A DNA stretch of 64,000 bases from Armatimonadota bacterium (GTDB lineage Bacteria > Armatimonadota > Zipacnadia > Zipacnadales > Zipacnadaceae): assembly GCA_036504235.1 (NCBI GenBank), contig DASXVN010000076.1:4395-68394 (forward strand). Direction: 5' to 3'. The notes under the pieces are model-generated. The model ran no database searches. It worked only from the letters and a program-made list of their open reading frames with translations, and was not told where the DNA came from. Of the stretch, positions 4,369 through 63,556 are shown piece after piece. Position 1 is the stretch's first letter. Every line of letters starts with the position of its first letter. The position numbers and the translations under genes were made by a program.

Positions 4369-4377
4369 GGAATCACC

Positions 4378-10542: not shown

Positions 10543-10550
10543 GGCAACTC

Positions 10551-21845: not shown

Positions 21846-21890
21846 AATGAATCTCCTGTGTCAGCGCCGCAAGCCGGCGCGAGGACGTTC

Positions 21891-22852: not shown

Positions 22853-22859
22853 TCCCCCT

Positions 22860-23570
22860 TCACCCCAACGCCTTCACCATGAACTCCCGCGCCTTATCGT
22901 GCACCCACTCCGGCCAGGGGCCGCCGTGGCCCGCGCCGGGGACCTCTAGGTACTCCACTCGCCGGCCGCGCTCCCGCATCGCCGGGACCATCCGGTCCGC
23001 GTGCACCGACTTCTTGACCGCCTCATCCGCGTCGCCCTGGACGATCAGGTAGTCAATATCCGGCATCTGGTCCACCTGGTGCAGCGGGGAATGCTCGGCC
23101 AGCAGGTCGGCCATCTCGCCCTCATAGCCGGCGAAGGCGCTGTAGATGGTGCGGGGCAGATCGGGCCGCTCGCCGAAGTGATAGACCAGGTCGCACATCG
23201 GGACATTCGCGTAGCAGGCCACCGGGTGATGCCGCGTATAGCGCACCCCCAGCAACGCCGCGCCGCCGCCCATCGAGCCGCCGGTGAAGACCAGCGGCAC
23301 GGTGGCCGGGTCCAGACCGTGCTGCGCGTAGAGGTCGGCGATCAGCACATCCACCATCTCCCGAGCCTGGCGGTTCATCCAGGACCAGGGCCCGTAATAG
23401 GGCATGACCATCAGCGCGCCGAGCGCCGCCATTTCCCGGTCCCAGTCATCCGGCTCGGTCTTGAGCCCGGTGCCGCCCAGGCCGTGGAAGCACATCACCA
23501 CGCCGCGAATCGGTCCCTCCAGCAACTCGTCGCCCACCCAGGCGACCTCGTGGGGCTGTCCGTGGGGCAT
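22860..23570 (-). CDS. Alpha/beta hydrolase (esterase/peptidase S9-like)
   Basis: Nucleophile elbow GGSMGG and the C-terminal D and H of the triad. Internal ATG at 23570 with GAGGAG RBS; the longer upstream ORF is low-complexity. Confidence 0.65.
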   Translation of the reverse strand: MPHGQPHEVAWVGDELLEGPIRGVVMCFHGLGGTGLKTEPDDWDREMAALGALMVMPYYGPWSWMNRQAREMVDVLIADLYAQHGLDPATVPLVFTGGSMGGGAALLGVRYTRHHPVACYANVPMCDLVYHFGERPDLPRTIYSAFAGYEGEMADLLAEHSPLHQVDQMPDIDYLIVQGDADEAVKKSVHADRMVPAMRERGRRVEYLEVPGAGHGGPWPEWVHDKAREFMVKALG

Positions 23571-23590
23571 AAAACAGAACTCCTCTTCGA

Positions 23591-47802: not shown

Positions 47803-48083
47803 GCCGTTGCCGTACTGTAGGGCGGGGCTTGCCGCGGGCCCTGAGCCCGTCGAAGGGTGCCGCCGGGGAGGGGGCCGCCGTTTGCCGTTACTCCCCCTCT
47901 CCCAAGGTCCGCCGCGGGAGAGGGGGCCGGGGGGTGAGGTTGAACTGGTGTCCAGCCACCCCCTTCCGTCCCTTGGGCCCGCCTTTGCCGTTAGCCGTTT
48001 CCCCCCTCCCCTATCTAGGGGAGGGCGGCGCGCAGCGCCGGGGAGGGGTCCGCCGTTTGACAGCGCCCCGCCCGCCCCTTACG
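47803..48083. repeat. Mosaic GC-rich intergenic repeat cluster
   Basis: Contains GTAGGGCGGGG..., GCCGTT tracts, the hairpin CCCCCTCTCCC-AAGGTCCGCCGC-GGGAGAGGGGG + GCCGGGGGGTGAGGTTGAACTGG, and CCCCTCCCC-TATCTA-GGGGAGGG. Confidence 0.6.
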
Positions 48084-48138
48084 ATGTTGGCACCCGTGCC
48101 CCCGGGGCCCGTGGTTTCCTTGAGGAGAGTGCTGCGCC

Positions 48139-48678
48139 ATGTACAAACTAAGCCCCGCGCTCGTGCACGTCTATACCGGCTCCGGCAAGGGCAAAACCAG
48201 CGCCGCTCTGGGCGTGACCTGGCGCGCCCTAGGGGCCGGGCTGCGCGTATACTTCCTGCAGTTCCTCAAGGGCGGCACCCCGGCCGCCGAGGAGCTGCTG
48301 GCCGACTGCTTCCCCGGACACCTGACCTTCCACAACCTGAACCACCCCTGCACTCCGGACCTCTTCGCCGGCCGGCCCACTGCCCAAGACTGCCGACTGG
48401 CCCAGGAGGCCTGGACGGTAGCTCGCGGAGTGCTGGCGGACCCGCAGTACGATCTGGTCGTGCTGGACGAGATCAACAACACGTTGCACCTGGGGTTGGT
48501 GGAGTTGGCTGAGGTCCTCCAGGCCCTGCGCGAGCGCCCCCCGACGCAGGAGGTCATCTGTACGGGCCGCGGAGCGCCGGAGGGCTTGGTGGACTTCGCG
48601 GACTTGGTCACGGAGCTACGCGAGGTCAAGCACCCCTATCGCAACGGCGTCCCCGCCCGCCGCGGAGTGGATTTCTAG
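48139..48678 (+). CDS. cobO: Cob(I)yrinic acid a,c-diamide / corrinoid adenosyltransferase (CobA/CobO/BtuR type)
   Basis: P-loop VYTGSGKGKTSAALG; LQFLKGG; DLVVLDEIN; C-terminal KHPY...GVDF. Confidence 0.75.
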   Translation: MYKLSPALVHVYTGSGKGKTSAALGVTWRALGAGLRVYFLQFLKGGTPAAEELLADCFPGHLTFHNLNHPCTPDLFAGRPTAQDCRLAQEAWTVARGVLADPQYDLVVLDEINNTLHLGLVELAEVLQALRERPPTQEVICTGRGAPEGLVDFADLVTELREVKHPYRNGVPARRGVDF

Positions 48679-48689
48679 CCGCGCCAGTC

Positions 48690-49080
48690 GTCCCCCCCTC
48701 TTCCGGAGGGGCCGCACGAGCAAAGCGAGGCCGGCCCTGCCGTTGCCTTGGCCGTTCGTAGGGCGGGGATTACGCCTGCGAAGCTCGCTCCGCGAGCTTC
48801 CCGCCCTGAGCCTATCGAAGGGTCTCCCGCCGGCCGTTAGCCGTTGCCTTTGCCTTGCCGTCAGCCCCTCCCGCTCCGGGAGGGGTGCCCAAGGCGAAGC
48901 CGAGGGCGGGGTGGGCCACCCGTCAGCGAGCGGGCGCGTTGCTCGGCTCCGCTCCGCAGAACGCGCCCCTACGCAGAAACGGCCCGGCCGTTGCCCGTTT
49001 GCCGTAGCCGTCAAGCCCCTCCCTTTAGGGAGGGGTGCCCGGAGGGCGGGGTAGGGCCGTCTGCCGTTCCCCCTTCCGCC
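48690..49080. repeat. Mosaic GC-rich intergenic repeat cluster
   Basis: Carries the 42-nt box CCGGAGGGGCCGCACGAGC(AA/GC)AGCGAGGCCGGCCCTGCCGTT, GTAGGGCGGGG..., GCCGTT tracts, and two CCCTCCC-loop-GGGAGGGGTGCCC..GGGCGGGGT(A/G)GGGCC hairpins. Confidence 0.6.
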
Positions 49081-49085
49081 TCCCC

Positions 49086-49128
49086 CCAAAAAAAGAGGCC
49101 CCGACCGAAGTCGGGGCCTCTTTTGTGT
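49086..49128. terminator. Bidirectional rho-independent terminator
   Basis: AAAAAAAGAGGCCCCGACCGAAGTCGGGGCCTCTTTTGTGTT: 11-bp stem flanked by an A-run and a T-run, between convergent cobO and the SLH-porin gene. Confidence 0.65.
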
Positions 49129-49155
49129 TGCTTGGGTACTGCAGTCGGCTCTTGC

Positions 49156-50994
49156 TTAGAAGCCTACGGAGACGCCCATCATCACGAGCTGAGCATCCTC
49201 GAGTACGCTACCAGCAAGGTCCTTCGTGCGGTCCTCAACCAGCTGCTGGGCATAGGTGAAGTTAACATCTACGCCGTTGGCAACGGGCTTCTTCACGCGG
49301 ATGGCCCACAACTTGTCGAACGGAGCGCGAGTCTCGTTACCAGCGGCGAAGACCCGATCCCCTACGTTGTTGACGCCCCACATGGTGTTAGCCCAGTTGT
49401 CGCTCCGGCCATGCAACGAATAGTACATTGCATTCCAGTCGGCAGCGACGAACTTGAAGTTGAGCTGTCCGCCGATGACCTGCGTGTTCGGCATGACGAG
49501 CGGGTTGCGGAGCCAGCGCTCCCACGGAACCCACGTCGTGCCGTCTTCGTTCCCGTAGTTCTCGAAGTACGGGTTGACGGTGGAGTAGAAGGGGTTGTAC
49601 TCGGCGTCAGCCTGCGAGTAGTAACCCTTGAGGGCCCAAGCGCGGCCCTTCCAGATATCGACCGTGGCCATCAGGGCCTCCGGGTCGTTGTGGGTGACAT
49701 ACTTGTCGCCCGCGAGGTCGCGAAGCTGCTGAGCGTATTCTGCCTGCAGCTCGCGGCCGCCCCAGAAACGTACCCAACCGTCGGCGCTCCAGCCGCGCTC
49801 CCCGCCCACACCGTTGAGCAGGTAGTTGCCCGCGACAGCCCAGTTCGGCTGCTTGTAGGACAAGCGGGTGCTGGCATAGTAGTCGCCCATGGTCTTCCAC
49901 GGGGTGCTGAACGTGTAGTCGGCGCCGCCCACGAAGGCATCCAGGCCGATTCCGGTCGAGAACATGTTGTTCCAACCGAAGCGGATCCCCTGCTGCGACT
50001 GCCGGGCGTTGTTGACGAGCAGGCCCATGCCATAGGACTGGAACTGGCGGCCCAGCACCATGTGGGTGCGGGGGAAGACATGCCAGGTGAAGTCCAGGTT
50101 GGCCTCATCAAGCCACAGCTGCTCGGCCTGATGGGTGATGGAGCTGCTGGTGCCGAGGTCGGTGAAGCCGTCCAGGGCCACGATGTTGCGCCCGGCGAAG
50201 CTGCCGCGGCGGGTGAACGTCGAGACGAACGGGGCTTCGGTGTCGCGGACCTTGAGCACTACGCGACCGGTCAGGTCGTCAGTGATCTTGCCCTCGATGC
50301 CGAGCTTGGCGGTCATGTTGTCGAACTCGTTCTGCCCGACCTTGAAGCCCTTGGCCGAGCTGAGCAGGCTCTGCTGGCCGCCCACCAGGCGGCTCCCGGT
50401 GAACTGCTGGGCCAGGCCTACGCGATAGTCTACCCAACCGGTGACGCGGGGGCCCTGGCGGGCCTCGAGGGCGGCAACGCGGTCGGTGAGGCTATACACG
50501 TCGTCGGTCAGGTAGTCGAGGTTGTCCTTGACGTCCTTCAGCTCATTCTTGAACTCGTCGCAGAGCTTCTGGCAGACAGCCTTGACTTCGTCGGGATTGA
50601 CGACACCAGCCGGACCCTGCGGGCCAGTGGCGCCCGCGGGACCCTGCGCGCCAGCCGGGCCGGCGGCGCCGGCGGGACCAGCAGTACCAGTGACGCCAGC
50701 GGCGCCAGCGGGGCCCTGCGCGCCAGCGGGGCCGCGCATGTTCGGGTTCTTCTGCAGGGCGTCCAGCATGCGGCTAATGGCCATAGCGAACTCGTAGCGA
50801 GTCATGGCCCGGTTGCCACGGAACGTACCATCGGGGTACCCGATGATAATGCCCTGGTCGACGAGCTTCTGTACGGCATCATAGGCCCAGTGATCAAACG
50901 GCACAGTTTCGGCCGGATTGTACTGAGCCAGCGCGGGCAGGGCGATAGCGCCCAGCGCCACGATCAGGCATACGACTAGGAATTTCTTGCTCAT
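49156..50994 (-). CDS. Outer-membrane protein: SLH domain + collagen-like G-P-A repeats + coiled coil + C-terminal beta-barrel (porin-like)
   Basis: Signal peptide [23 protein letters not shown]; SLH motif ([38 protein letters not shown]); [43 protein letters not shown]; C-terminus ends in F. ATG at 50994 with AAGGAGGG RBS. Confidence 0.7.
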
Positions 50995-51448
50995 TTGGGT
51001 TATTAACCCTCCTTTTGGATGGTCGTCGAGGAGACGCGAGGTTGGCTCACAACTCGGCTTGCCCAAGCGTCCCTCCGGAGCGAACAGACCAGCATTGGAG
51101 GGCTCAAGAGTGTCCATGTTTCCTCTCATGCCCTGGCTGCGAACGGTCTGCGCTACTCCGCCCTCGTCCATTGACCTCTGATACCCTGGCCTGGAGGTCC
51201 CTCCCTTCTTGGGCCTGGTGTTTGGATATCAGCATGGACAAGCGCTCGACATACGGGGCATAAGCCCCGCTTACGGCGGGTTAACGATACTATTTTAGCC
51301 GCCGCAAGTCAAGGTAGTTCGACACCTGAGCTTCCGAAAGGTTCGCCTTCTCCAGCCTTTTCTCCGGGAATTTCCCCGGCCCCTTGAGGACCGTGCTTCC
51401 TCCCTAGCGACCCCCGCACTAGCAGCAGTTTCCAAACTGTCGCTGCTG

Positions 51449-51812
51449 TTTGTAGGGGTGGGCTTTGCGGTCCGCCGCCATGTCCACCCAGCGTTGCCTT
51501 CCTCTCCCTCTCCCAAAGTGGGAGAGGGGGCCGGGGGTGAGGAAGCGCCGTTGCCGTTGTAGGGGCGGCTTTTGCCCGTCTCGGGCAATTGCCGCCCGTT
51601 TGCTGACTGAAATCAAACCGGCGCGGAAGGATCTACCCCTGCCGAACGGGCGGCAATTCGGCGCTGACGCCGAAAAGCCGCCCCTACGGTGAAAGGGCCG
51701 TCGCCGTTCCCGGAGGGGCCGCACGAGCGCAGCGAGGCCGGCCCTGCCGTTAGCCGTTGCCCCTCCCGCTCCGGGAGGGGTGCCCGGAGGGCGGGGTGGG
51801 CCGCCGTAAGTT
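51449..51812. repeat. Mosaic repeat cluster including a REP inverted pair (BIME-like)
   Basis: GTAGGGGTGGGC...; CCTCTCCCTCTCCC-AAAGTG-GGAGAGGGGG + CCGGGGGTGAGG; REP GTAGGGGCGGCTTTTGCCCGTCTCGGGCAATTGCCGCCCG with inverted partner at 51646-51686; 42-nt box; CCCTCCCG-CTCC-GGGAGGG hairpin. Confidence 0.6.
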
Positions 51813-51902
51813 TATTCTCCTCACCACCGGAACCTTTCTTATCTACTATTGTTGGTAGTAGGCAGAGCACCGAACTTTCCCAGACTCCGCGAGGTGAGAA
51901 AG

Positions 51903-52478
51903 ATGAGAGCAACCCTTTATTCCTTACTAACCCTGTCCGTCCTGGCCACCGTACTGGCGGGCTGCGGCGGCTCCAGCAGCACCCCCGCCCTGCCTGCCGA
52001 ACCGGCCCGCAGCGCCCAGGTAATCACCAAGAGTCCGGGACTGGACAGTCTCGCCGCCGCCCTAACCGCGGCGGGCAAGCCCCTACCCGACTTCCTGCAG
52101 AGCGGCACGGTAACCACCGCCCCGCCTCCCGGCTCCGTGAGCACGCAGTCCTACATGACCGTGCTGACCCTCAACCGCTGGCTGTACAACCAGAGCGTGA
52201 CCCGCGGCCGCACCCAGTGGTATGAGGTCAGCCTGACCAGCCTCAACAACCTGACGGACGCCTACGCCCTGGTCCGCTCCGGCGACGCCGACCTCTACGT
52301 CTTCTCGCCGATCCGCCCCAACGACCCCAACAGCTCCCTGCAACTGGTCGGCTACAGCGTGGGCACGGGCAACGAGCAGGTCGGCTCCTGGGTAGCCTCC
52401 GCCTGGGGCGGCACCGGCCGCTACATCATCGGAGTCAACGGCTTCCAGGCCAGCACCTTCGACCTCAAAGTCTGGTAG
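51903..52478 (+). CDS. Lipoprotein with pre-peptidase C-terminal (PPC)-like domain
   Basis: Lipobox VLAGC after signal peptide; GAGGTG RBS. ...QWYEVSLTSLNNLTDAYALVRSGDADLYVF... matches the PPC pattern. Confidence 0.55.
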   Translation: MRATLYSLLTLSVLATVLAGCGGSSSTPALPAEPARSAQVITKSPGLDSLAAALTAAGKPLPDFLQSGTVTTAPPPGSVSTQSYMTVLTLNRWLYNQSVTRGRTQWYEVSLTSLNNLTDAYALVRSGDADLYVFSPIRPNDPNSSLQLVGYSVGTGNEQVGSWVASAWGGTGRYIIGVNGFQASTFDLKVW

Positions 52479-52504
52479 CCGCGTCGATATGCGCACAGAC
52501 AGCG

Positions 52505-52536
52505 AGAGAGCCGAGCTAGTTAGCTCGGCTCTCTTC
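52505..52536 (+). terminator. Perfect 14-bp palindrome AGAGAGCCGAGCTA-GT-TAGCTCGGCTCTCT downstream of the lipoprotein gene
   Basis: Begins 27 nt after the stop codon; weak T-rich tail. Confidence 0.4.
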
Positions 52537-52559
52537 GTGTCAGCCGGTTTGCGGGTGAG

Positions 52560-53012
52560 CCGGCCGTCTCCCGTAGGGGCGCGTTTTGGCCCGTCCGCGG
52601 GACAACACACGCCCCTACGCGGAAGAGTCCCCGCCGTTGTCTTTGCCGTTCCCCCCTCTCCCCAGTCTGCGCGGGGAGAGGGGCCGGGGGTGAGGCCAGG
52701 CTGCCGCTGGGCGTGTCTCTTCGCCGTTCGTCATTGCCGTTCCCCCCCTCTCCCAAGCCGCAGGCGCGGGAGAGTGGGCCGGGGGCCTGTCCGCCGTAGC
52801 TTCAGCGAAGGCGGATGAGGTAAGACTGGCGTCCGGCCTCCCCCTTCCGCCCCTACGCGGAGACCTCCCCGCCGTTCGCCTCTGCCGTTACTCCCCTCTC
52901 CTGCCAGGAGAGGGGCCGGGGGTGAGGCCGGGCTACCGCTGGGCCCGTCTTCCCCAGGTCCCGCGCGGGGAGAGGGGGCCGGGGGCCTGTCCGCCGTAGC
53001 TTCAGCGAAGGC
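52560..53012. repeat. Mosaic repeat cluster (REP + four CCCCTCTCC/GGAGAGGGG hairpin copies, two carrying a nested insertion)
   Basis: REP GTAGGGGCGCGTTTTGGCCCGTCCGCGGGACAACACACGCCCCTAC; hairpin copies at ~52656, 52745, 52896, 52965. Copies 2 and 4 have CCTGTCCGCCGTAGCTTCAGCGAAGGCGGA inserted between GCCGGGGG and TGAGG. Confidence 0.6.
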
Positions 53013-53020
53013 GGATGAGG

Positions 53021-53596
53021 CTAGTACGCCTCGCAATACGGCTCGTAGTACGCCTGCGCATGCTGACACGCCGGACACACCTTGGGCGGCGTGGCGCCCT
53101 CCATCACCATGCCGCAGTTGCGGCAGTGCCACTTGATCGGCGCGGGGCGCGAGAAGACCTCGCCCGCCGCCACGCGACCGGCCAGTACGTTATAGCGATG
53201 CTCGTGGAAGGCCTCTACCTTAGCGATCTGGTCGAAGGACACGAACACCGCGCCGAAGCCCTCCTCCTTGGCGGTCGCGGCGAAGCCGGGATACAGCGTG
53301 CCCCACTCCAGCAGCTCGCCCGCGGCCGCGGCCTGCAGGTTCTCCAGAGTCCCGGCGATCACGCCGCCCGGGTAGGTAGCGGTGATCTCCACGTCGCCGC
53401 CCTCGAGGTGCTTGAAGAAGACCTGCGCGTGCTCCTTCTCATTGTCCGCGGTCTCGGCAAAGATCGCGGAGATCTGCTCATACCCCTCCTTCCGCGCCAC
53501 GCTGGAGAAGTAGGTGTAGCGGTTGCGGGCCTGCGACTCGCCGGCAAAGGCGGCCAGCAGGTTCTTCTCGGTCTGTGAGCCTTTCAGACTGGACAT
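53021..53596 (-). CDS. rbr: Rubrerythrin
   Basis: Ferritin-like diiron motifs (E..H pairs) plus a C-terminal rubredoxin-like CxxC...CxxC (CRNCG...CPAC). Confidence 0.85.
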   Translation of the reverse strand: MSSLKGSQTEKNLLAAFAGESQARNRYTYFSSVARKEGYEQISAIFAETADNEKEHAQVFFKHLEGGDVEITATYPGGVIAGTLENLQAAAAGELLEWGTLYPGFAATAKEEGFGAVFVSFDQIAKVEAFHEHRYNVLAGRVAAGEVFSRPAPIKWHCRNCGMVMEGATPPKVCPACQHAQAYYEPYCEAY

Positions 53597-53632
53597 GGAT
53601 GACTTCCTCCCTAGGATGTTCCGTTGTTTCCC

Positions 53633-53676
53633 GTAGGGGCGGCTTTCGCAGCTTCCGAGCTGCGCTTGCCGCCCGC
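53633..53676. repeat. Single REP palindrome (GTAGGGGCGGCTTTCGCAGCTTCCGAGCTGCGCTTGCCGCCCGC)
   Basis: Begins with GTAGGGGCGG and is internally palindromic; lies between rubrerythrin and the zinc-ribbon gene. Confidence 0.5.
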
Positions 53677-53691
53677 TGGCTAAACGCGCCT

Positions 53692-53949
53692 CTACTCGGC
53701 CGGCTCGGCGGGCGGTTCAGCTTCCGGCGCGGCGGCCGCGGCCTCGGCTTCGGCCTGCATCTCCGCGAGCTTGGCCTCGTCCACCCAGATGCGGCCGTGG
53801 CCACTGCAGAACGAGCAGCGCGCCGCGGACGGCTGGCCCTTGCGCCCCTGACCGGCGGCCATCTTGCAGACCTCACAACTCCGACCGTGGTCCACCTTAC
53901 AGATCTTGGCTCCGTGGCAGTGCATGCATTCGACTAGCTTATCGGCCAT
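53692..53949 (-). CDS. Small zinc-ribbon / DnaJ-CR-like Cys-rich protein
   Basis: 85 aa with CMHCHG...C..C and CSFCSGHG (CxxCxGxG) motifs. AAAGGAG RBS at canonical spacing. Acidic Ala/Glu/Pro C-terminal tail. Confidence 0.5.
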   Translation of the reverse strand: MADKLVECMHCHGAKICKVDHGRSCEVCKMAAGQGRKGQPSAARCSFCSGHGRIWVDEAKLAEMQAEAEAAAAAPEAEPPAEPAE

Positions 53950-54048
53950 GATGCTTGGCTCCTTTCAGAAGACGGAGGCCGCTGGACGCCGAGGCGCGCC
54001 GCTCCCGTCTGGGCTGCGATTATCCCCCTCGCGGGGGCCTTCTCCCGT

Positions 54049-54846
54049 CTACGGCTTGGCGAACACTTCCGCCAGAAAGTCCCGCATCGCCTGCCCGGAG
54101 CGCCGGGCGGCGATCTCGTTATAGGCGACCGGCGAGCCGGCGGCCGGCACGTTGGCGGGGTTGGTGAAGCCGTGTACCGCCCCGCCGTAGTAGATCATTT
54201 CCCAGTCCACCTTGCCCTGCCGCAAGGCCTCCTGCAGCGCGGTAATCGTCTCCGGCTTGATCGTCGGATCATCCGCCCCGTGCAGAATCAGCAGGTGCGC
54301 CTTGATTCGCGCCAGGTCCGCCGCCTCCGGCACGGTCAGCCCCCCGTGGAAGGTCACCACGCCCCCCAGCACCGCCCCGCTGTAAGCCAACTCCAGCGCG
54401 CAGGTGCCGCCGAAACAGAAGCCGATCGCCGCAACGCGCTGCCGGTCCACCCGCGGGTTCTTCACCAGTTCAGCCAGCGCCGCCGCCGCCCGCTCCCGCA
54501 TCAACTGGCGCCCGCCGGTGTCCCAGGCGCCCCGGAACTGCCCGGCCAGCTTCCCGGCCTCAGCGGGATCAGTGGCCACCAGACCGTCGCCATACATGTC
54601 CGCTACCAGGGCTACATAGCCCAGTTCCGCGAGCTGTCGCGCCCGCTCGCGCGGGAAGTCGTTGACCCCCCACCACTCCGGGAAGACCAGTACTCCCGGC
54701 CGGGGTCCGGCCCCCGCGTCGTCATCGGCGAGGTAGCCCTGGCACACCGTGTCGCCCGCCTGATAGGTCACCGTCTCCGTCTTGATCGCCGCCTGGGTCG
54801 CCATGCTTAGCCCCAGCAGCAACAGCACCACGACTGCCGTTTGCAT
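54049..54846 (-). CDS. Secreted dienelactone hydrolase family protein
   Basis: Signal peptide; GFCFGG nucleophile motif; HGADD; C-terminal H in VHGF. ATG at 54846 with AAGGAGG RBS. Confidence 0.75.
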   Translation of the reverse strand: MQTAVVVLLLLGLSMATQAAIKTETVTYQAGDTVCQGYLADDDAGAGPRPGVLVFPEWWGVNDFPRERARQLAELGYVALVADMYGDGLVATDPAEAGKLAGQFRGAWDTGGRQLMRERAAAALAELVKNPRVDRQRVAAIGFCFGGTCALELAYSGAVLGGVVTFHGGLTVPEAADLARIKAHLLILHGADDPTIKPETITALQEALRQGKVDWEMIYYGGAVHGFTNPANVPAAGSPVAYNEIAARRSGQAMRDFLAEVFAKP

Positions 54847-54884
54847 CCGGGCTCGCCTCCTTATATATAGGAGGGACCCCTCGG

Positions 54885-56780: not shown

Positions 56781-56923
56781 AGTGTCTACCTAATTCCCGT
56801 TTCCCCGCGGAACTCCTGCCCCAGCGGGTCCCCCGCCGGGAGGATTGCCGCCTCCCCAGGGCGAACCAGTTCCCAATCGTGGTCGTTTCCGGCCGCACCG
56901 CCACTATCTGAGGAGGAATCCCT

Positions 56924-57919
56924 ATGTCCTTTGACGTCGTAACCTTCGGCGAAGCCATGGTCCGCCTGACTCCGCCGCTTTTCCAGCGTATCGAGCAGGC
57001 CAGCGAGCTGTGGATGCACGTCGGCGGCGGCGAGTTCAACGTCGCCATCGGCGCTTCCCGCCTGGGCCTGACCTCGGCCTGGGTCTCCGCCCTGCCCGTC
57101 AACCCCCTGGGCCGTCTGGTCCGCAACAAGGCCCGCGAGCACGGGGTCAACACCGATTACGTCGCCTGGCACGAGAAGGAGCGCTGCGGCCTGTACTTCC
57201 TGGAGATGGGCACCGCCCCGCGCCCCAACGCCGTCCTCTACGACCGCGCCAACGCGGCGGTCTCCAACCTCCAGCCCGGCGAGCTAGACTGGGACGGCGT
57301 CTTCGCGGGCGCGAAGGCCTTCCACGTCTCCGGCATCACCCCCGCCCTCTCGGCAAGCTGCTGCGAGGTCACCATGGAGGCTCTGCAGAAGGCCAAGCAG
57401 CACGGACTGTTCGTGTCCTACGACCTCAACTACCGCAAGAACCTCTGGTCCACCGCCGAGGCCGCCGCCGCCCAGGAGCCGATGATGGACTACGTGGACC
57501 TGCTGATCACCACCGAGGACGACGCGAACGAGGTCTTCGGCCACCAGGGCGCCCCGGCCTCGGTCTGCCGGGAACTCAAGGAGCGCTTCGGCTTCACCGC
57601 CGCGGCCATGACCCTGCGCCGCATCGACACCGTCCTGCGCCACGGCTGGACCTCGATTATCTACGCCGACAAGCTCTATGAGGACGTCACCTACGAGCTA
57701 GAGAACGTGGACCGCGTAGGCGGCGGCGACAGCTTCTCGGCCGGCTGCCTCTACGGCTGGCTGACCACGCAAGACTGGCAGCAAGCAGTAGCCTGGGGCG
57801 ACGCCTTCAGCGCCCTCAAGCACACCAACCTGGGCGACGTAAACTTCGCCACCCGCGAAGAAACCGAGCGTCTCATGAAGTCCTACGGCGACAAGCTCCG
57901 CTTCAAGATTCAGAGGTAG
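56924..57919 (+). CDS. PfkB-family carbohydrate kinase (KdgK-like)
   Basis: N-terminal GG motif region (HVGGGEFNVAIG) and C-terminal DRVGGGDSFSAGCLYG anion-hole/ATP motif. Confidence 0.8.
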   Translation: MSFDVVTFGEAMVRLTPPLFQRIEQASELWMHVGGGEFNVAIGASRLGLTSAWVSALPVNPLGRLVRNKAREHGVNTDYVAWHEKERCGLYFLEMGTAPRPNAVLYDRANAAVSNLQPGELDWDGVFAGAKAFHVSGITPALSASCCEVTMEALQKAKQHGLFVSYDLNYRKNLWSTAEAAAAQEPMMDYVDLLITTEDDANEVFGHQGAPASVCRELKERFGFTAAAMTLRRIDTVLRHGWTSIIYADKLYEDVTYELENVDRVGGGDSFSAGCLYGWLTTQDWQQAVAWGDAFSALKHTNLGDVNFATREETERLMKSYGDKLRFKIQR

Positions 57920-57939
57920 ATAGACGCGGCCGTTTCCGC

Positions 57940-57986
57940 GTAGGGGCGGAAGTTGCCCGGTCCGCCGGGCAATCTCCGCCCGCGCC
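57940..57986. repeat. REP palindrome immediately upstream of the RAYT gene
   Basis: GTAGGGGCGGAAGTTGCCCGG-TCC-GCCGGGCAATCTCCGCCCGCG. Confidence 0.6.
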
Positions 57987-58019
57987 CGCCACTAACACTC
58001 TCTTCTTCACAACCTTGAC

Positions 58020-58529
58020 ATGGACCGCACCCCTACCGACAATCCGGTCGTTCGCCTGCCGCAACGACATGACTGCCGCCCGCGGCTTGATTCGTACGTC
58101 TACGGGCCGTCTGGCTATGTCACGCACGTTGCCATCGGTTCTCACCGAAAACGCCCGGTGCTGACTACCAATCCCCAGGTCGCTGGCCTGATCTGCGCGT
58201 GCCTGGAGGCTGCGGCCTTCGCCCAGGGTGGGCGGCTCTATTGCTACTGTCTGATGCCCGATCATCTGCACTTTCTGGTCGCCATTGACCCGGGCGGGAG
58301 CAACGTCGCCACGATCGTTCGCTCTTTTGGCATCCGGGTGACGATGCGGACCAAGCACCTCTGCGCTCCGCCGCTTTTCCAACGCAGCTTCTACGATTCC
58401 GTAGTCCGGGAGGACGACGATCTACCGGAGCGCTGCACATACGTGGTGAATAATCCGGTGCGCCAGGAGCTGGTGGCGGATTGGCGCGACTATCCTTACA
58501 CGTGGCTCTCTCCAGAGTTGGGAAGCTAA
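58020..58529 (+). CDS. REP-associated tyrosine transposase (RAYT; IS200/IS605-like HuH Y1 transposase family)
   Basis: HuH motif in ...YCYCLMPDHLHFLVAI..., catalytic-Tyr region ...CTYVVNNPVRQELV...; about 165 aa, typical RAYT size. Flanked on both sides by REP palindromes beginning GTAG. Confidence 0.75.
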   Translation: MDRTPTDNPVVRLPQRHDCRPRLDSYVYGPSGYVTHVAIGSHRKRPVLTTNPQVAGLICACLEAAAFAQGGRLYCYCLMPDHLHFLVAIDPGGSNVATIVRSFGIRVTMRTKHLCAPPLFQRSFYDSVVREDDDLPERCTYVVNNPVRQELVADWRDYPYTWLSPELGS

Positions 58530-58545
58530 CGCTGTTGCCCTTGTA

Positions 58546-58950
58546 GGGAGACGACCGCTTCATGCGCGAACCCCCTGCCGTTGCCCTTGTAGGGGCGGAA
58601 GTTGCCCGGTCCGCCGGGTAATCTCCGCCCGCGCCCGCCACCAACCGCCTCTTCCTCACCCCCTGACGCCCAACGCGACATCGCCTCGTCGAATCAGCGA
58701 ACCACCCCCAACCTAGCGACCGCCGCGGGCGGAGATTCGGCGCCGACGCCGAACTTCCGCCCCTACGGGAGACGACCGCTTCATGCGCGAACCCCTGCCG
58801 TTGCCCTTGTAGGGGCGGAAGTTTTCGCGTCCTAGCGAAAATCTCCGCCCGCGCCCGCCACCAACCGCCTCTTCCTCACCACCTGACGCCCAACGCGACA
58901 CCGCCTCGTCGAATCAGCGAACCACCCCCAACCCTAGCGACCGCCACCGT
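58546..58950. repeat. Tandem direct duplication (~220-nt unit x2), each unit containing a REP, separated by an inverted REP
   Basis: GTAGGGGCGG at 58589 and 58809. Unit 1 inner stem TTGCCCGG/CCGGGTAA versus unit 2 TTTTCGCG/CGCGAAAA (compensatory changes preserve the hairpin). Inverted REP GCGGGCGGAGATTCGGCGCCGACGCCGAACTTCCGCCCCTAC at 58727-58768. Confidence 0.6.
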
Positions 58951-59100
58951 TCTGCTGCTAGTGTTCTGGCACGGACTGGGAATGTACCTCGCGCACCTGC
59001 ATGCCGGATAGGACGCCCCCTCCCGCCGAACCTCTCCCGGCGCCCCGGCGTCGTTCCTCCTCAGACGTCGCACCCTTGCCGCCCCTGGGAGGAACCCCGT

Positions 59101-59670
59101 ATGCGCCCGAAGGCCCGTTGGTATCGAGGAGCCCTCACTGCCGCCGGAGCCCTGATCGCCACCAGCGCCTGGGCGCAAGGCCCTCCCGGGCCGCCCCGCC
59201 GGTCCTTCTGGCTGGACCCTGTCCACCTCCTCGGCCTCTCCGCGCCCCTGGTCATGGCCGTGGCCCTGGTCATCGGCCTGACCATCTTCTTCGGCCTACG
59301 CCGTCATGGCCTGGCCTATGACTCGCCGGCCCGCCAGGGTCGCCGCCGCTGGCATATCGCCTTCGGCCTGACCGGGGGTAGCCTCGCGATCGCCCACGCC
59401 CTCGGCCGCTACCACCAGTTTGGCGACAAAATTGACTTCACCCAGGCGGCGCCCAACCTGGCCCTGGCCTCGGTGCTGCTGCTAGCTATCGCCGGCATCT
59501 TGCGCGCCTCCCTGCCCTCTCGCCACGCCACCGCCCTGAGCGTCTTGGCCTGGTGCCACCGGCTGGGGGTGGTGGGCATGCTGGGTTTCGCCGCCTGGCA
59601 CGCGACCGGCGCGGTCCTCTTTCACCTCGCGCGGATGGCGAAGGCCGCCGCGACGCCCCCTCGCGGCTAG
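59101..59670 (+). CDS. Membrane protein of unknown function (signal peptide + 4 TM helices, conserved His residues)
   Basis: GGGAGGAA RBS 6 nt before ATG. Hydrophobic helices with His in HIAFGLTGGSLAIAH and WCHRLG...AWHATG. Confidence 0.45.
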   Translation: MRPKARWYRGALTAAGALIATSAWAQGPPGPPRRSFWLDPVHLLGLSAPLVMAVALVIGLTIFFGLRRHGLAYDSPARQGRRRWHIAFGLTGGSLAIAHALGRYHQFGDKIDFTQAAPNLALASVLLLAIAGILRASLPSRHATALSVLAWCHRLGVVGMLGFAAWHATGAVLFHLARMAKAAATPPRG

Positions 59671-60030
59671 TTTTTTTGGGTATTTTTTCTCCCCGAGAAG
59701 GAATCCCCCCGGACAGGGGGAATACCACCTGCGGCGCGGGTTACTACTCGCGCTTGACAACAGGTTTTGCACTCGGGGCATTGGCGCGCGCGAGCGCGTC
59801 GGGGCAATCTTCGCAGCTGGACAGAGGCGGACTCGGCTTTCTTTTCTGCTTGGGGGCAGACTAGAGCGTACCGGTCGGGTCAGCGTCGGTCCTCACCACA
59901 CTACTACCTCTCCCCTATCACACCAACGGTCTTGCCGTCCCTATCGGTCGTCCGCCAAGCGCGGCCACTCGGGCGAGATTCGCTAGGTCCCGCCAGTGGG
60001 CGCGGCTTGGCGCGTCCGCCTACGACCGAC

Positions 60031-60115
60031 TGTGGATAACTACGTGGATTCCGCGTGAATAAGCGGTATACGCGTGGTTCGTCACCTGTGGAAAACCACA
60101 CTTGGCTGTGGATAA
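60031..60115. promoter_or_regulatory. Cluster of DnaA boxes: two perfect TGTGGATAA 9-mers (60031-60039, 60107-60115) and one 8/9 match (60087-60095)
   Basis: Perfect matches to the DnaA-box consensus TTATCCACA (reverse orientation) in a ~70% GC background, 40-125 nt upstream of the oxidoreductase start. An AT-rich stretch lies at 59670-59700. Confidence 0.4.
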
Positions 60116-60155
60116 CTCGCCGTACCACCAGCATTTCAGGAGGATCAGTATCGCT

Positions 60156-61229
60156 ATGGCCACTCCTCGTATCGGCATCGTCGGCATCGGCACTTTCGGC
60201 ATCAATCACCTGCGCTGTTTCCGGCAGATGGGCTACACGGGCGACGCGGAATTGGTCGCCGCTTGCGATATGAACGCGGACCTGCTCGCCCTGCGCCAGC
60301 AGGAATTCAGCTTCACCCCTTACACCGACTATCACGAGATGCTGGAGAAGGAGAACCTGGACGGAATCACCGTGGTCACGCCCGACCCCTTCCACCGCGA
60401 GGTAGTCCTCGCCGCCGCCGCCGCCGGCGTCCACGTGATGAGCGAAAAGCCCCTCGACGTAACCGTAGAGGGCTGCCAAGAGATGACCGAGGCCTGCGCG
60501 CAGGCCGGCATCCTGCTGCAGGTGGACTTCCACAAGCGCTATGACGAGTACCATCTGGCTATGCGCGACAAGATCGCCGCCGGCGACCTCGGCCAAATCG
60601 AGTACGGCTACGCGCACATGGAGGACCGCATCGAGGTCCCCCGCGACTGGTTCCCCGGCTGGGCGGGCAAGTCGTCCCCGGCCTGGTTCCTGGGCATCCA
60701 CTTCTACGATCTGGCCCGCTTCCTGCTGGGAGCCAACGGGGTCTCCGTCTGGGCTACCGGCAATCGTGGCCGCCTGCGGAGCCTCGGCGTGGACGCCTGG
60801 GATTCCGTCTGCGCCAAGGTCCTCTTCGACAACGGCGCCACGGTCAGCTTCGACACCTCCTGGATTCTCCCGGACGGTTTCGAGGCCATCGTCAACCAGG
60901 GCATCCGCCTGGTCGGCGCCAAGGGCATGCTCGAATGCGACAGCCAGGACCGCGGCACGATGACCTGCTGCGCCGACGATCAGCCCATGATGCAGACCCA
61001 CAACAAGAGCTTCCTGCGCCAGGTGACGGACAAGTACGGGCGCGAGCTCTGGGAGGGCTACGGCATGACCAGCATCGCCGACTTCGCCCTCAACGTAAAG
61101 CTGCTCCTGGAGGGCCGCACGCTAGCCGACCTCGGCGCGTACCCCAGCGGCGAAGACGGCATAGAGGCCACCAAAATAGCCGCCGGCGTACATAAGAGCC
61201 TGGAATCCGGCGGAATCGTACAGCTGTAG
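60156..61229 (+). CDS. Gfo/Idh/MocA-family NAD(P)-dependent oxidoreductase
   Basis: N-terminal Rossmann motif IGIVGIGTFGINH; C-terminal alpha/beta domain. ATG at 60156 preceded by AGGAGGA. Confidence 0.8.
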   Translation: MATPRIGIVGIGTFGINHLRCFRQMGYTGDAELVAACDMNADLLALRQQEFSFTPYTDYHEMLEKENLDGITVVTPDPFHREVVLAAAAAGVHVMSEKPLDVTVEGCQEMTEACAQAGILLQVDFHKRYDEYHLAMRDKIAAGDLGQIEYGYAHMEDRIEVPRDWFPGWAGKSSPAWFLGIHFYDLARFLLGANGVSVWATGNRGRLRSLGVDAWDSVCAKVLFDNGATVSFDTSWILPDGFEAIVNQGIRLVGAKGMLECDSQDRGTMTCCADDQPMMQTHNKSFLRQVTDKYGRELWEGYGMTSIADFALNVKLLLEGRTLADLGAYPSGEDGIEATKIAAGVHKSLESGGIVQL

Positions 61230-61245
61230 GGCGTTGTCCGCCGCC

Positions 61246-61274
61246 CGTCGGTGGCACCGGCGTCTCGCCGGTGC
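61246..61274 (+). terminator. Conserved hairpin element GTCGGTGGCACCGGCG-TCT-CGCCGGTGC (second copy of the 27646 element)
   Basis: Starts 17 nt after the oxidoreductase stop; 27/28 identical to the copy after the HEAT-repeat gene; no U-tract. Confidence 0.45.
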
Positions 61275-61275
61275 A

Positions 61276-61480
61276 TGCCGTTAGCATCTTGGCCGTTGCC
61301 GTTGCCGTTGCCGTTGTAGGGGCGCGTTTGGCGGCGTCTGCGCCGACACACACGCCCGCTCGCTGCCTGACAGTCAGCGTAAGGGGACAATCCCCGGCCG
61401 TTGCCGTTCGACTTTGCCGTTCCCTCTCCTATTTAGGGGAGGGCGGCGGCGTCCCCGCCGCCGGGGAGGGGTCCGCCGTT
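61276..61480. repeat. Mosaic repeat cluster (GCCGTT x4 tandem, REP, CCTCTCC-TATTTA-GGGGAGGG hairpin)
   Basis: GCCGTTGCCGTTGCCGTTGCCGTT followed by GTAGGGGCGCGTTTGGCGGCGTCTGCGCCGACACACACGCCC, then the hairpin and CGGCGGCGTCCCCGCCGCCG palindrome. Confidence 0.6.
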
Positions 61481-61556
61481 GCCGCACCCGAACGTTTTCG
61501 CTCGCGACTCGCTCCGGCGACTCGCGTTGACTAACACAAAAGGGAGGTGAACAATT

Positions 61557-61976
61557 TTGCGGAGTATTCACTTGCGGGTGGCTGTGGGAGTGGTTGGCGC
61601 CTTGTTGGCGCTGGGCGCGACGTTGGCCGTGAGCTCTTTAGGTCAGGACAACGTACCGCTGATCTGGGATGGCCACCTGATCCTACGTATTCGCGTGGGC
61701 AGCGGCGGGCTGACGTCAGCGGAGCGAGCCTCAGAGATTCAGATGCGCCTGGAGGACCTCATGGCCGACCAGTTCGCCAATGAACGCGCCGACATAATCG
61801 GGCGCATCGCCGTGCACAAGTACGGCAAGGAGCTAACCATCGGCACCCCCGACCGTCTGCTCATGACCGTGACCCTGGCGGACGCGCGGGCCTGTAACTC
61901 GACCGTATTCTGGCTGGCCCAGTACTGGCGCGCCCGGATCATCGAGGCCATGATCATAGCCACGCGCACCGGCTAG
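61557..61976 (+). CDS. Small secreted protein of unknown function
   Basis: TTG start with AGGGAGGTG RBS at 7-nt spacing; signal peptide (VAVGVVGALLALGATLAVSS). Confidence 0.45.
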   Translation: MRSIHLRVAVGVVGALLALGATLAVSSLGQDNVPLIWDGHLILRIRVGSGGLTSAERASEIQMRLEDLMADQFANERADIIGRIAVHKYGKELTIGTPDRLLMTVTLADARACNSTVFWLAQYWRARIIEAMIIATRTG

Positions 61977-62080
61977 CGCTCGTCTCCCGAGAACCGCTTC
62001 ACCACACCGCTGCCCTATATCGCACTAATCGCCGCGCATATCCGCCGCACCCAACTCGGGATCGTACAGATCAAGCCAGG

Positions 62081-62660
62081 CCGGGGAGCACTTTCCCCGG
62101 CCTGCTTTGCGTTCGAAGGGCAGCCGCTAACCCTCCCGTAGGGGCGGAGCTTGCTCCGCCCGGCCGTTAGCCGTCGCCGTTGCCGTCGCCGTTTGTAGGG
62201 CGGGGACTCGTGCCCCGCCGTCGCTAGGCAGACGTAATCCGCCGGGGCACAGTCCTCGGCGCACTGTGCGAATGCCGTTGCCTTTCCCGGAGGGGCCGCA
62301 CGAGCGCAGCGAGGCCAGCCCTGCCGTTCGCCTTGGCCGTTTGTAGGGCGGGGCCTACGCGCCCCGCCGGCCGTTGCCTCTGCCCTTGCCCTTCTCCCCC
62401 TCTCCCAAGCCGAAGGCGCGGGAGAGGGGGCCGGGGGGTGAGGTTAAGACTGGCGTCCCGCCTCCCCCTTCCGCTTCGACGCGGGCGGAGCAAGCTCCGC
62501 CCCTACGGGGAAACGGCGCCGGCCATCCGCCGTTCCCCCCTCTCCCAAAGTGGGAGAGGGGCGGGGGTGAGGAAGCCGTTGCCGTTCCCCCCTCTCCTGC
62601 GGGCGCTCGTCGGCGAGCGCCACGGAGAGGGGCCGGGGGTGAGGCCCGGCGGTCACTGCC
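62081..62660. repeat. Large mosaic repeat cluster bounded by inverted REPs (GTAGGGGCGGAGCTTGCTCCGCCC at 62139 / inverse at 62483)
   Basis: Contains the hairpin CCGGGGAGCACTTTCCCCGG, GCCGTT/GCCGTC tracts, GTAGGGCGGGG-loop-CCCCGCC REPs (62196, 62343), the 42-nt box (62288-62330), and three CCCCTCTCC/GGAGAGGGG hairpin copies (62396, 62541, 62583). Confidence 0.6.
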
Positions 62661-62678
62661 GACGCTCCGGGCGCTAGC

Positions 62679-63119
62679 TCACTGCATGTGCGCCTCAATG
62701 TGAATGTCGCCACTAGCGAAATTCACGGTGCCAAAGCCCCAGACCTGTCGCGTGTTGACCCACAAGTAATCCTCGGCCGGCGTGGTGAGACTGATGTTCT
62801 CACAAAGGTCGGCGATGGCCTCGCCGGCGCGAGGCACGCCCACCCCGTCGGCCGACAGGGCGATCCGCTGACCGCCCTTCGTCTCAATGACGGCGCGTAT
62901 GTCGAGGTCAATGCGCCCGTCCGCCCGCAGTCGGAGGTAGTCCACGCCCCGCACCTGACCAGTCAATCGCCCCGTGGCGTGACCTTCAAAGGCCACGTCA
63001 ATGCGAGCACCTTGCGGAGGGATTGGAGACTGGCCCGCGAGGATGGACTTCAGCGTAATCCCGTAGTCCGTCACTCCCATGACTTTCAGATCGTATTCGT
63101 AGATCTTTTCGCCTCTCAT
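62679..63119 (-). CDS. DUF3237-like small protein
   Basis: 146 aa from the ATG at 63119. ...IPPQGARIDVAFEGHATGRLTGQVRGVDYLRLRADGRIDLDIRAVIETKGGQRIALSADG... matches the DUF3237 pattern; the ORF-finder N-terminal extension is repeat DNA. Confidence 0.45.
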   Translation of the reverse strand: MRGEKIYEYDLKVMGVTDYGITLKSILAGQSPIPPQGARIDVAFEGHATGRLTGQVRGVDYLRLRADGRIDLDIRAVIETKGGQRIALSADGVGVPRAGEAIADLCENISLTTPAEDYLWVNTRQVWGFGTVNFASGDIHIEAHMQ

Positions 63120-63221
63120 GGAACCCCTTCTCTCTTCTACTGAGTTTGCAGTGCCACGCGTCGCGAAACCCAACTGGCCCTCAACCGGGCCGCCCGCCCC
63201 GACCAACGCGCCGGCTGAGCA

Positions 63222-63556
63222 AGCCTTGCCGTTGACGTTGCCCTCGCCGTTGCCGTTCGCCGTTTCCCCGGAGGGGCCGCACGAGCGCAGCGAGGCCGGC
63301 CCGGCCGTTGCCGTTCTCCCCCCTCTCCCAAGGTCCGCCGCGGGAGAGGGGGGCCGGGGGGGTGAGGTCAAACGTAACTCCCGCCTCCACCCCTCGCCCC
63401 AACCTCCGCCTCTGCCGTTCCCCCCTCTCCCCAGTCCGCGCGGGGAGAGGGGCCGGGGGTGAGGAGCCGTTGCCGTACGCCGTTGCCTTTGCCGTAAACC
63501 CCTCCCTTCAGGGAGGGGTGCCCGCAGGGCGGGGTAGGGCCGTTGCCGTTCCCCTA
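63222..63556. repeat. Mosaic repeat cluster
   Basis: GCCGTT tracts, the 42-nt box (63268-63309), two CCCCTCTCCC/GGGAGAGGGG hairpin copies (63320, 63421), and the CCCTCCC-TTCA-GGGAGGG hairpin. Confidence 0.6.

Follow-up and report, generated by a model that had tools for sequence, protein, structure and literature searches.

A mosaic of REP, Box C-like and lineage-specific repeat modules in the intergenic DNA of an Armatimonadota bacterium

We analyzed a 64-kb stretch of an Armatimonadota genome (contig DASXVN010000076.1, positions 4,395 to 68,394; hereafter the window; G+C 67.5%), the spacers of which are a mosaic of small repeat modules between 47.6 and 63.6 kb, hereafter the range. Besides a gene for a REP-associated tyrosine transposase (RAYT) and GTAG-tagged repetitive extragenic palindromes (REPs), the mosaic contains three G/C-rich elements of common design (modules B, C and F) and a 42-nt box (module D). 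Each module has a recognizable anatomy; B, C, F and D share one orientation, the hexamer GCCGTT forms a common 5' junction, the modules lie outside transcription units, and B and C are widely distributed among other genomes. On balance, the mosaic probably represents untranscribed spacers that accumulate several families of small elements folding as single-stranded DNA (ssDNA), joined via a lineage-specific GCCGTT. The hairpin-looped family, the breadth of occurrence including phages, a three-way covariation that favors a triplex over a quadruplex and a link to GC skew may all be new.

A preliminary description of this DNA, made from the sequence alone, had proposed modular repeats in the intergenic DNA of 47-64 kb. 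These are real, and their coordinates were exact or a few bases off. Its figure of 4-5 kb of repeat DNA in 17 kb was an overestimate: the spacers of the range add up to 5,482 bp, of which 2,209 bp (40%) match elsewhere in the window (E<=0.01).

Results

Module B is a widespread variant of Box C

The block structure of module B identifies it as a register-shifted form of Box C (also called PIT or TMECO), the intrastrand purine-motif triplex element of Escherichia coli. About 12 copies had been proposed, and we located 11 in the range and one at 22700, all intergenic and on the plus strand (Table 1). Ten copies were parsed as C4-6TCTC2-4 / G2-4AGAG4-6 / CC / G5-7TGAGG with first loops of 5-26 nt, and these ten satisfy the purine-motif triplets that Box C/TMECO blocks are able to form (C-G.G, T-A.A and T-A.T), the third block running antiparallel to the second. 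The strict TMECO consensus (CCCTCNCCC N3-6 GGGNGAGGG N3 GGGNGAGGG) had no match on either strand of the window; a relaxed form (second loop of 2-6 nt, last G free) matched two window copies. Where the preliminary description spoke of repeats beyond the classic REP, non-REP modules are indeed present, but module B is not new, being a variant of Box C (PMC4666352).

Single strands of the E. coli sequences form a purine-motif intrastrand triplex in vitro, as seen by circular dichroism and nuclear magnetic resonance (Holder et al. 2015, PMC4666352), and the literature quoted there has the triplex form in DNA, not RNA. Box C is always intergenic, has neither promoter or terminator activity nor a linked transposase, and its origin is unexplained (PMC4666352). 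TMECO had been reported from 262 proteobacterial genomes (PMC4666352). We found no later paper in the literature on bacterial intrastrand triplex motifs, and the exact long B and C strings gave no match.

To describe the distribution of the modules we used exact-word scans, the counts of which are lower bounds, and took gene contexts from crude gene calls based on open reading frames (ORFs); the many elements that appeared to lie inside ORFs in high-GC loci were treated as artifacts of this calling. The four points named above as possibly new depend on these scans and calls. Among genomes sampled once per species, at least 120 stretches of many different phyla contained the B core (GGAGAGGGG..CCGGGGG..TGAGG), as did at least 120 viral contigs. 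Hosts of this core include Hymenobacter and other Bacteroidota, Chloroflexota, Planctomycetota, Acidobacteriota and Armatimonadota, as well as Pseudomonas, Methylobacterium, Thiomargarita, Melainabacteria and Spirochaetota, and in E. coli a related Box C copy lies between nrdA and nrdB. Many matches have AT-rich flanks and keep the C-rich left arm while the loop is free. Boundaries are sharp, with CT before the C-block and TGAGG followed by G or T, where conservation ends. The motifs are thus not confined to the window, a possibility that the preliminary description had left to be checked; B, C and the REPs were all found elsewhere.

Block run lengths co-vary over 374 non-identical copies from genomes and viral contigs, with (4,4,5) in 184, (5,5,6) in 48 and (3,3,4) in 6 copies and a correlation between the first and second G runs of rho = 0.84. 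This three-way covariation favors a three-strand registry, since a hairpin alone does not predict it.

The claim that two B copies carry an identical 30-nt palindromic insertion was borne out. The palindrome (CCTGTCCGCCGTAGCTTCAGCGAAGGCGGA) splits the third block at GGGGG^TGAGG in two copies that belong to different loop subtypes, and no target duplication is visible; the identical insertion point suggests site-specific insertion, which speaks for the spacers as collectors of small elements. Free-standing copies were absent from the fetched loci up to L125. The palindrome has GTAG in its loop (TCCGCC-GTAGCTTCAGCGAA-GGCGGA).

Box C copies can be closely packed in viral contigs from IMG/VR: L352 (43% G+C) has five inverted pairs at 10425-11881 with a period of ~335 bp, and L376 has five tandem copies at 4342-4608 with a period of 57 bp. 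A coding origin of module B (CTC-CCC-TCN-CCC, T-to-G synonymous) was considered and dropped, as its loops do not come in multiples of three nucleotides and the copies lie between genes.

Modules C and F replace the second loop with a hairpin

Modules C and F, to judge from how their sequences parse, share the three-block design of Box C with a mini-hairpin as the second loop. Four copies of C and two variants had been proposed; all are present, the variants being what we call F. Module C reads CCCCTCC(C) / (G)GGAGGGG / TGCCCGNAGGGC / GGGGTGG(G), with the third-block T opposite the second-block A and a 12-nt second loop that is a GCCC-GNA-GGGC hairpin (consensus AATTCCCCTCC-N3-GGAGGGGTGCCCGNAGGGCGGGGTGGTT). 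Its G-rich core (GGAGGGGTGCCCGNAGGGCGGGGT) occurred in at least 120 metagenome stretches (G+C 29-66%), 15 viral stretches and one Flavobacteriaceae genome. Here too the parts change together: a hairpin longer by one C:G pair went with a longer third block in 14 of 14 copies, compared to 36 of 135 others (Fisher P = 6e-8). Loop lengths admitted by published triplex searches, as summarized in PMC4666352, were 1-6 nt for ITxF and 0-10 nt for Hoyne et al., so elements of the C/F type would have been missed. No paper with the C sequence was found in the literature, where it may be described under another name, and the consensus had no match in plasmid and phage record collections.

The E. coli versions of these elements show ion-dependent G-quadruplex (G4) and hairpin signatures (Kaplan et al. 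2016, PMC5100583) and window copies of C have five G-tracts of three or more, so the modules could be G4/hairpin switches that regulate their neighbors, like HPG1/HPG2 of E. coli. We consider this very unlikely. Only two G-tracts of three or more occur in the B variant, both in the window and in at least 240 stretches elsewhere, and a three-tetrad quadruplex is therefore not what is conserved; most C-family copies end in GGGGTGG and have three such tracts, so that a quadruplex is no common denominator for C either. The mirror registry of the blocks is conserved where the quadruplex is not, and the modules lie outside promoter-to-gene intervals. Under our preferred reading of ssDNA-folding elements, the conserved feature of B, C and F would be the registry of an intrastrand purine-motif triplex (G.G-C, A.A-T and T.A-T) and neither an RNA fold nor a quadruplex.

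GCCGTT is a common 5' junction and D a lineage-specific box

Degenerate tandem GCCGTT hexamers had been noted before, and both counts and Tandem Repeats Finder (TRF) arrays substantiate them. GCCGTT occurs 99 times on the two strands of the window compared to 41.8 +/- 6.9 in shuffled sequences, none of 100 shuffles reaching as high, and in the intergenic DNA of the range it is found 56 times on the plus strand versus twice on the minus strand. Reading every module in its own direction, REPs of the minus strand among them, we found an exact GCCGTT no more than 9 nt 5' of the module in 26 of 40 cases (65%; 35 of 40 allowing one mismatch), versus at 9.9% of random intergenic positions. By class, the exact hexamer precedes 9 of 11 B copies, all three D boxes found by pattern, the single F scored, 12 of 21 REP heads and one of four C copies (four of four allowing one mismatch). 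Minus-strand REPs carry it on the minus strand, which means that the hexamer follows the module and not the chromosome strand. GCCGTT is a lineage-specific 5' junction common to every module class; in other phyla it is absent from the flanks and consensus of B and C.

The four near-identical 42-nt boxes listed previously were recovered with 0-2 mismatches. Module D is a lineage-specific box: the minus strand has D-like variants at about 9.6 and 22.8 kb, and in a related Armatimonadota metagenome-assembled genome (MAG; locus L063) a D variant stands in the arrangement D-GCCGTT-B-GCCGTT. A pattern of 26 nt of the box had no match in metagenome contigs, a collection that evidently does not include the source sample. 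Its fold was no better than that of shuffled sequence (z=+0.4), and D as a hairpin was rejected.

The terminal GCCGTT of the F copy upstream of cobO overlaps the -35 element of a sigma-70-like promoter (48052-48085; TTGACA-17-TACGAT, 10/12; junction GCCGTT|TGACA), so the repeat end of this module may supply promoter sequence to cobO.

A regular linker of this kind also suits binding sites for host proteins (nucleoid, gyrase or IHF-like), with GCCGTT arrays as one such site, kept for chromosome organization. BIMEs (bacterial interspersed mosaic elements) offer a precedent (PMC8266576), stems are conserved in sequence even in a recurrent mismatched variant, and the repeats are strongly clustered at 47-64 kb, with 11 of the 12 B copies of the window within 16 kb. 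We nevertheless hold protein binding to be an unlikely explanation: one dedicated binder is unlikely to be common to all the phyla and phages in which identical B and C sequences occur, GCCGTT is missing from those copies, copy number differs greatly among close E. coli strains (PMC4666352), and no candidate protein was found.

Orientation may follow GC skew

In the range, the plus strand is the G-rich one in all 21 oriented module copies (B, C, F and D), over eight spacers and with genes running both ways. GC skew of the plus strand is negative along the whole window, also at third codon positions. Box C elsewhere had the same skew sign at 54 versus 25 genome loci (P = 0.001) and in 79 versus 17 viral contigs (P = 1e-10), and copies at least 300 bp apart in viral contigs were co-oriented in 63 versus 13 cases. 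Inverted pairs less than 300 bp apart predominate in other genomes (26 versus 10), whereas the window has none. We treat this strand rule as a lead; orientation that tracks GC skew but not gene direction is what a structure on replicating single strands predicts.

An 85-bp segment upstream of the GFO/IDH/MocA gene (60031-60115) contains three DnaA boxes, of which two are perfect (TTATCCACA, minus strand) and the third has one mismatch. An origin of replication at this cluster near 60.05 kb, which would split the modules by replichore, was rejected because GC skew keeps its sign; the cluster is probably a DnaA-regulated promoter or titration site.

The modules are more likely DNA-level elements than RNAs

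Position relative to transcription signals suggests that the modules lie mostly outside transcription units. Intrinsic-terminator hairpins separate them from the porin-like gene and from the gene ending at 61976 (Table 1), and promoter-like sites stand between the modules and the genes that they face. No Rfam family matched the window at the gathering score, and a permissive threshold at 62100-62700 returned only chance-level sub-threshold hits of miRNA and other types. In 80 bacterial Box C loci, elements favored neither orientation with respect to genes (same strand, 106 flanking genes; opposite strand, 110). Together, these three results make DNA-level elements likelier than RNAs.

The preliminary description had likened module B to structured RNA or protein-binding sites; for the RNA reading, small RNAs, terminators, insulators or 3'-UTR stabilizers would be the roles of the modules at large. 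Some E. coli REPs do act at the RNA level. Hairpins of B, C and F are stable, and one E. coli Box C allele lies within an operon, in the nrdA-nrdB spacer, in the same orientation as the genes and where other strains have REPs. An RNA role nonetheless seems quite improbable to us, and for module B it is unsupported. Beyond the evidence above, the modules have no T-tracts, they keep to one DNA strand while flanking genes use both, and the conserved registry between the two G-blocks, a DNA triplex feature, plays no part in an RNA hairpin. PIT elements were also without terminator or promoter activity in earlier work quoted in PMC4666352. For annotation, such spacers are best described as repeat mosaics and kept out of ORF and small-RNA calls.

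The REP part is an ordinary REPtron

RAYT-family enzymes cleave and rejoin folded single-stranded REP DNA. The 169-aa product of the plus-strand ORF at 58020-58529 scored 22.8 bits with Pfam Y1_Tnp (cut-off 23) and 73.9 bits with NCBIfam REP_Tyr_transpos (equivalog cut-off 80). Its sole relative in the PDB is E. coli TnpA-REP 4ER8 (E = 1e-3), with HUH (LMPDHLHF) and tyrosine (YVVNNPV) motifs aligned, and the NCBI and JGI labels for this protein are Armatimonadota MAG transposase and RayT. By its motifs it is probably a divergent RAYT (Y1/HUH), narrowly under curated thresholds.

The gene stands between a REP and an inverted REP. We counted 16 GTAG-REP heads in the range and 21 (GTAGGG(G/C)...) in the whole window. 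Long REPs have the form GTAG-GGGCGG-NN-[inner stem]-NN-CCGCCC, in which the outer stem (GGGCGG/CCGCCC) is conserved and the inner stem varies by copy but is always paired (TTCGGCG, TTGCCCGG, TCGCAGC, TTTTCGC). Shorter ones read GTAGGGCGGGG-loop-CCCCGCC, and with a still longer type there are at least three classes; all copies of the long class fold as hairpins (-16 to -21 kcal/mol). The doublets at 15218/15327, 51559/51687 and 58589/58766 each combine a GCCCGG-type and a CGGCG-type inner stem, and such alternation of two REP types in inverted doublets is the defining feature of BIMEs. The REP part is hence an ordinary REPtron (RAYT plus REP/BIME), and the earlier term BIME-like mosaic is apt, given the RAYT gene between REP and inverted REP, the two-type doublets and the recurring linker. 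In characterized RAYTs the GTAG guide selects CT or CA as the cleavage site (PMC8266576); CT is no constant feature of the 5' flank of the local REPs.

The two copies of the longest REP class, and a further one on contig L381 (2570-2640, minus strand), have a conserved segment CCCTGAGCC-N-TCGAAGGGT. We take this segment to resemble a repeat of many GC-rich bacteria, and it may presumably be another cross-phylum module.

Spread of the modules

Independent records bear on whether the mosaic is a local artifact. JGI contig Ga0376481_000260 (sample 3300035523) equals window positions 48020-62342 at 99.98% over 14.3 kb, encodes the identical RAYT and terminates within repeats at 62342. Contig L381 from the same sample has a paralogous RAYT (49% identity) in the same arrangement with flanking REPs, the same REP units including the longest class, a Box C element of the same loop subtype and module C. 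One-strand orientation with regional clustering, the 220-bp tandem duplication, the hexamer arrays and the contig break in repeats would fit segmental duplication with slippage in 16 kb, or a mis-assembly of repeats. We judge this extremely unlikely, as two records agree, modules stand on another contig, B and C occur in hundreds of unrelated sequences, and copies of one loop subtype lie in separate spacers up to 40 kb apart with unrelated flanks.

RAYT is the sole candidate enzyme for module spread in the window, where an IS200-type TnpA is not present (NCBIfam transpos_IS200, 12.6 bits). Pfam searches of 145 ORFs flanking Box C in 37 multi-copy contigs returned phage structural proteins and housekeeping genes.

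In E. coli, the nrdA-nrdB (L122-L125) and tauD-hemB (L384/L385) spacers exist as alternative alleles: some strains have Box C there, others REP/BIME or a simple terminator hairpin. Of 5426 complete genomes, 1686 match the nrdA-nrdB Box C allele in whole or part, 574 of them over at least 80% of the query.

Coordinates and neighboring genes

Coding genes of 47.6-64 kb lie on both strands (Table 1). The 612-aa product of the minus-strand gene at 49156-50994 has an N-terminal SLH domain followed by collagen-like GPAG repeats, and its large C-terminal domain had zero Pfam matches; the protein may be a porin that anchors the outer membrane, of the sort typical of diderm Armatimonadota-like lineages. 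Positions 1-47000 hold 6.8 kb of apparent intergenic DNA, yet their repeats amount to no more than a single B copy, five REP heads and two D-like boxes. Long apparent spacers there (for example, 21861-23590) may conceal genes skipped by the crude gene caller.

Table 1 Repeat modules, transcription signals and genes, in window coordinates
Feature	Position	Strand	Details
Composite outside the range	22645-22850		REP, GCCGTT x4, B (22700-22746), tail, D-like box (-), inverted REP
REP, long class	47817-47864; 48758-48807	+	GTAGGGCGGGG...CCCTGAGCCCGTCGAAGGGT...; two copies
Module B	47893-47939	+	Long form, tail to ~47975
Module F	48001-48051	+	CCCCTCCCC / GGGGAGGG / hairpin CGGCGC-GCA-GCGCCG / GGGAGGGG; fold z=-2.6
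CobO gene	48139-48678	+	
Module D	48703-48744	+	2 mismatches
Module C	48865-48915	+	Enlarged loop; hairpin as second loop
Module C	49016-49056	+	
Intrinsic-terminator hairpin	49091-49124		Between porin-like gene and modules
SLH/collagen protein gene	49156-50994	-	Porin-like
Module B	51506-51542	+	Short loop AAAGT
REP doublet	51559-51687		REPIN/BIME-like; REP 51559-51597 (+, GCCCG-type inner stem), inverted REP 51648-51687 (-, CGGCG-type)
Module D	51710-51751	+	Reference copy
Module C	51760-51800	+	
Small secreted protein gene	51903-52478	+	
Module B	52651-52695	+	
Module B	52742-52820	+	30-nt palindromic insertion (52786-52815) in third block
Module B	52893-52927	+	
Module B	52949-53020	+	Other loop subtype, degenerate left arm; 30-nt insertion (52986-53015); adjoins rubrerythrin stop codon
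Rubrerythrin gene	53021-53596	-	
Dienelactone hydrolase gene and gene for 631-aa protein	Within 47.6-64 kb	-	
PfkB kinase gene	56924-57919	+	
REP 5' of RAYT gene	57940-57981	+	GTAG and two-tier hairpin; DNA fold -21.5 kcal/mol, z=-5.2
RAYT gene	58020-58529	+	
220-bp unit x1.8	58546-58945		REP 58589-58630 (+), inverted REP 58727-58766 (-), REP 58809-58850 (+); TRF, REP folds, family D1
Membrane protein gene; GFO/IDH/MocA oxidoreductase gene	Within 47.6-64 kb	+	
GCCGTT array	61292-61316	+	Perfect (GCCGTT)x4.2, adjoining REP; TRF
Module F	61420-61474	+	Second copy
Intrinsic-terminator hairpin	62077-62104		Between gene ending 61976 and modules
Three short REPs	62138-62368	+	62138-62161, 62195-62219, 62343-62368; GCCGTT arrays and one D box between
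GCCGTT arrays	62163-62193; 63226-63264; 63466-63495		TRF
Module D	62287-62328	+	1 mismatch
Module B	62396-62443	+	Long form, tail reaching inverted REP 62483-62506
Inverted REP	62483-62506	-	Matches the three short REPs
Module B, two copies	62535-62644	+	62535-62572; 62587-62644 with 26-nt hairpin in first loop
Module D	63268-63309	+	1 mismatch
Module B, two copies	63318-63464	+	63318-63367, 63420-63464
Module C	63499-63539	+	Fold z=-3.0
Two small genes; ArsR gene	Within 47.6-64 kb		

Discussion

Three components would make up the mosaic under the reading that we prefer, in which untranscribed spacers collect ssDNA-folding elements. The first would be the REPtron, a RAYT with GTAG-tagged REPs of at least three classes, two of which pair as inverted doublets; the second, the three-block G/C elements B, C and F (C-block, loop, G-block, loop, G-block); and the third, the lineage-specific 42-nt module D. 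GCCGTT would join the families head to tail. Elements would spread by copy-and-paste as ssDNA into GCCGTT-marked sites, RAYT would move the REPs, and selection at the replication fork would favor copies oriented so that the lagging-strand template is not the G-rich strand.

Several results weigh against this account. As to the agent, we found no direct link of RAYT to B, C, F or D; GCCGTT contains neither CT nor CA, that is, no known RAYT cleavage site; and near Box C or C elements in other genomes GTAG hairpins are not enriched (1.0-1.4x, not significant). The ORFs flanking Box C included no recurrent transposase or HUH enzyme, in agreement with Holder et al. (PMC4666352). As to insertion, comparison of filled and empty sites gave no clean case, the second assembly of the locus being identical, and the E. 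coli nrdA-nrdB and tauD-hemB spacers differ by replacement of the whole spacer with neither boundaries nor target duplication. The strand rule is broken by the single copies of MG1655, 8 leading and 5 lagging as counted from Table 1 of Holder et al. (PMC4666352), and module C in metagenome contigs showed no skew bias (28 versus 31). As to structure, the run-length covariation could come in part from a few amplified subfamilies and not from independent events, the CCCTCGCCC variant (68 of 374 copies) weakens the hairpin and resembles conservation of sequence more than of structure, and the triplex was without an in vivo footprint in E. coli (PMC4666352).

A wider proposal, which we put forward as speculation with rather low expectations, is that Box C and its hitherto unrecognized sister family C are selfish ssDNA-folding elements of bacteria and phages, filtered by orientation at the replication fork and drawn locally into the RAYT/REP system via a GCCGTT junction at which a Y1 transposase would paste them. 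If true, it would give the first named candidates for the agent and the target by which Box C spreads. This element has been known since the 1990s and seen as a DNA triplex in vitro; its origin, spread and function are still open according to Holder et al. (PMC4666352). The shifted variant and its hairpin-looped relative keep the triplex registry and not the quadruplex tracts, which helps to decide what structure is conserved. A range beyond the reported proteobacterial and cyanobacterial one, including phage genomes, points to a route of horizontal spread. Box C elements within a RAYT/REP mosaic with one constant junction hexamer also pose a concrete question, namely whether RAYT cuts at or beside GCCGTT.

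Comparison with known systems

Non-autonomous derivatives of IS200/IS605 elements transpose as single strands and insert 3' of a short specific sequence without target duplication. The local modules are similar in having a common short sequence 5', and often 3' too, in single-strand folding and strand asymmetry, and in the palindrome inserted without visible target duplication. They differ in that B, C, D and F have no left- and right-end hairpins with guides, in that B, C and F are one three-block structure, and in that their mobility is putative.

HPG1/HPG2 (PMC5100583) and TMECO types A and B are identical E. coli sequences, and the C-rich 5' partner was recognized for HPG1/HPG2 as well; the local variant differs in being unable to form their defining three-tetrad quadruplex.

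The REP part corresponds to the REPtron (Nunvar 2010; Ton-Hoang 2012; Corneloup 2021, PMC8266576) in its GTAG hairpins, the RAYT gene flanked by REP and inverted REP, the inverted doublets of two REP types with linkers, and clusters after genes and between divergent genes. Local differences are the Armatimonadota host, a two-tier stem with a freely varying inner hairpin, the conserved 5' extension GCCGTT(TCCC), hexamer arrays as linkers, and the non-GTAG modules B, C, D and F.

Module B agrees with Box C (Bachellier 1990s; Hoyne and Maher 2000; Holder et al. 2015) in the order C-stem, loop, G-stem, short loop, G-stem; in the core words CCCTCTCC, GGAGAGGG, CCG and GGGTGAGG; in the third-block T opposite the second-block A; and, for copies elsewhere, in the CCCTCGCCC mismatch variant. 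Further likenesses are the intergenic position, the frequent inverted pairs less than 300 bp apart and the absence of a linked transposase. Local B copies differ in their runs (C4-6..C2-4 versus C3..C3), the 2-nt second loop, the loss of the four G3 tracts, a first loop of 5-26 nt that is often itself a hairpin (versus 3-6 nt in TMECO), their co-orientation and the GCCGTT before them. In range, the shifted variant extends Box C to Armatimonadota, Bacteroidota, Chloroflexota, Planctomycetota, Acidobacteriota and others, and to phage-like contigs.

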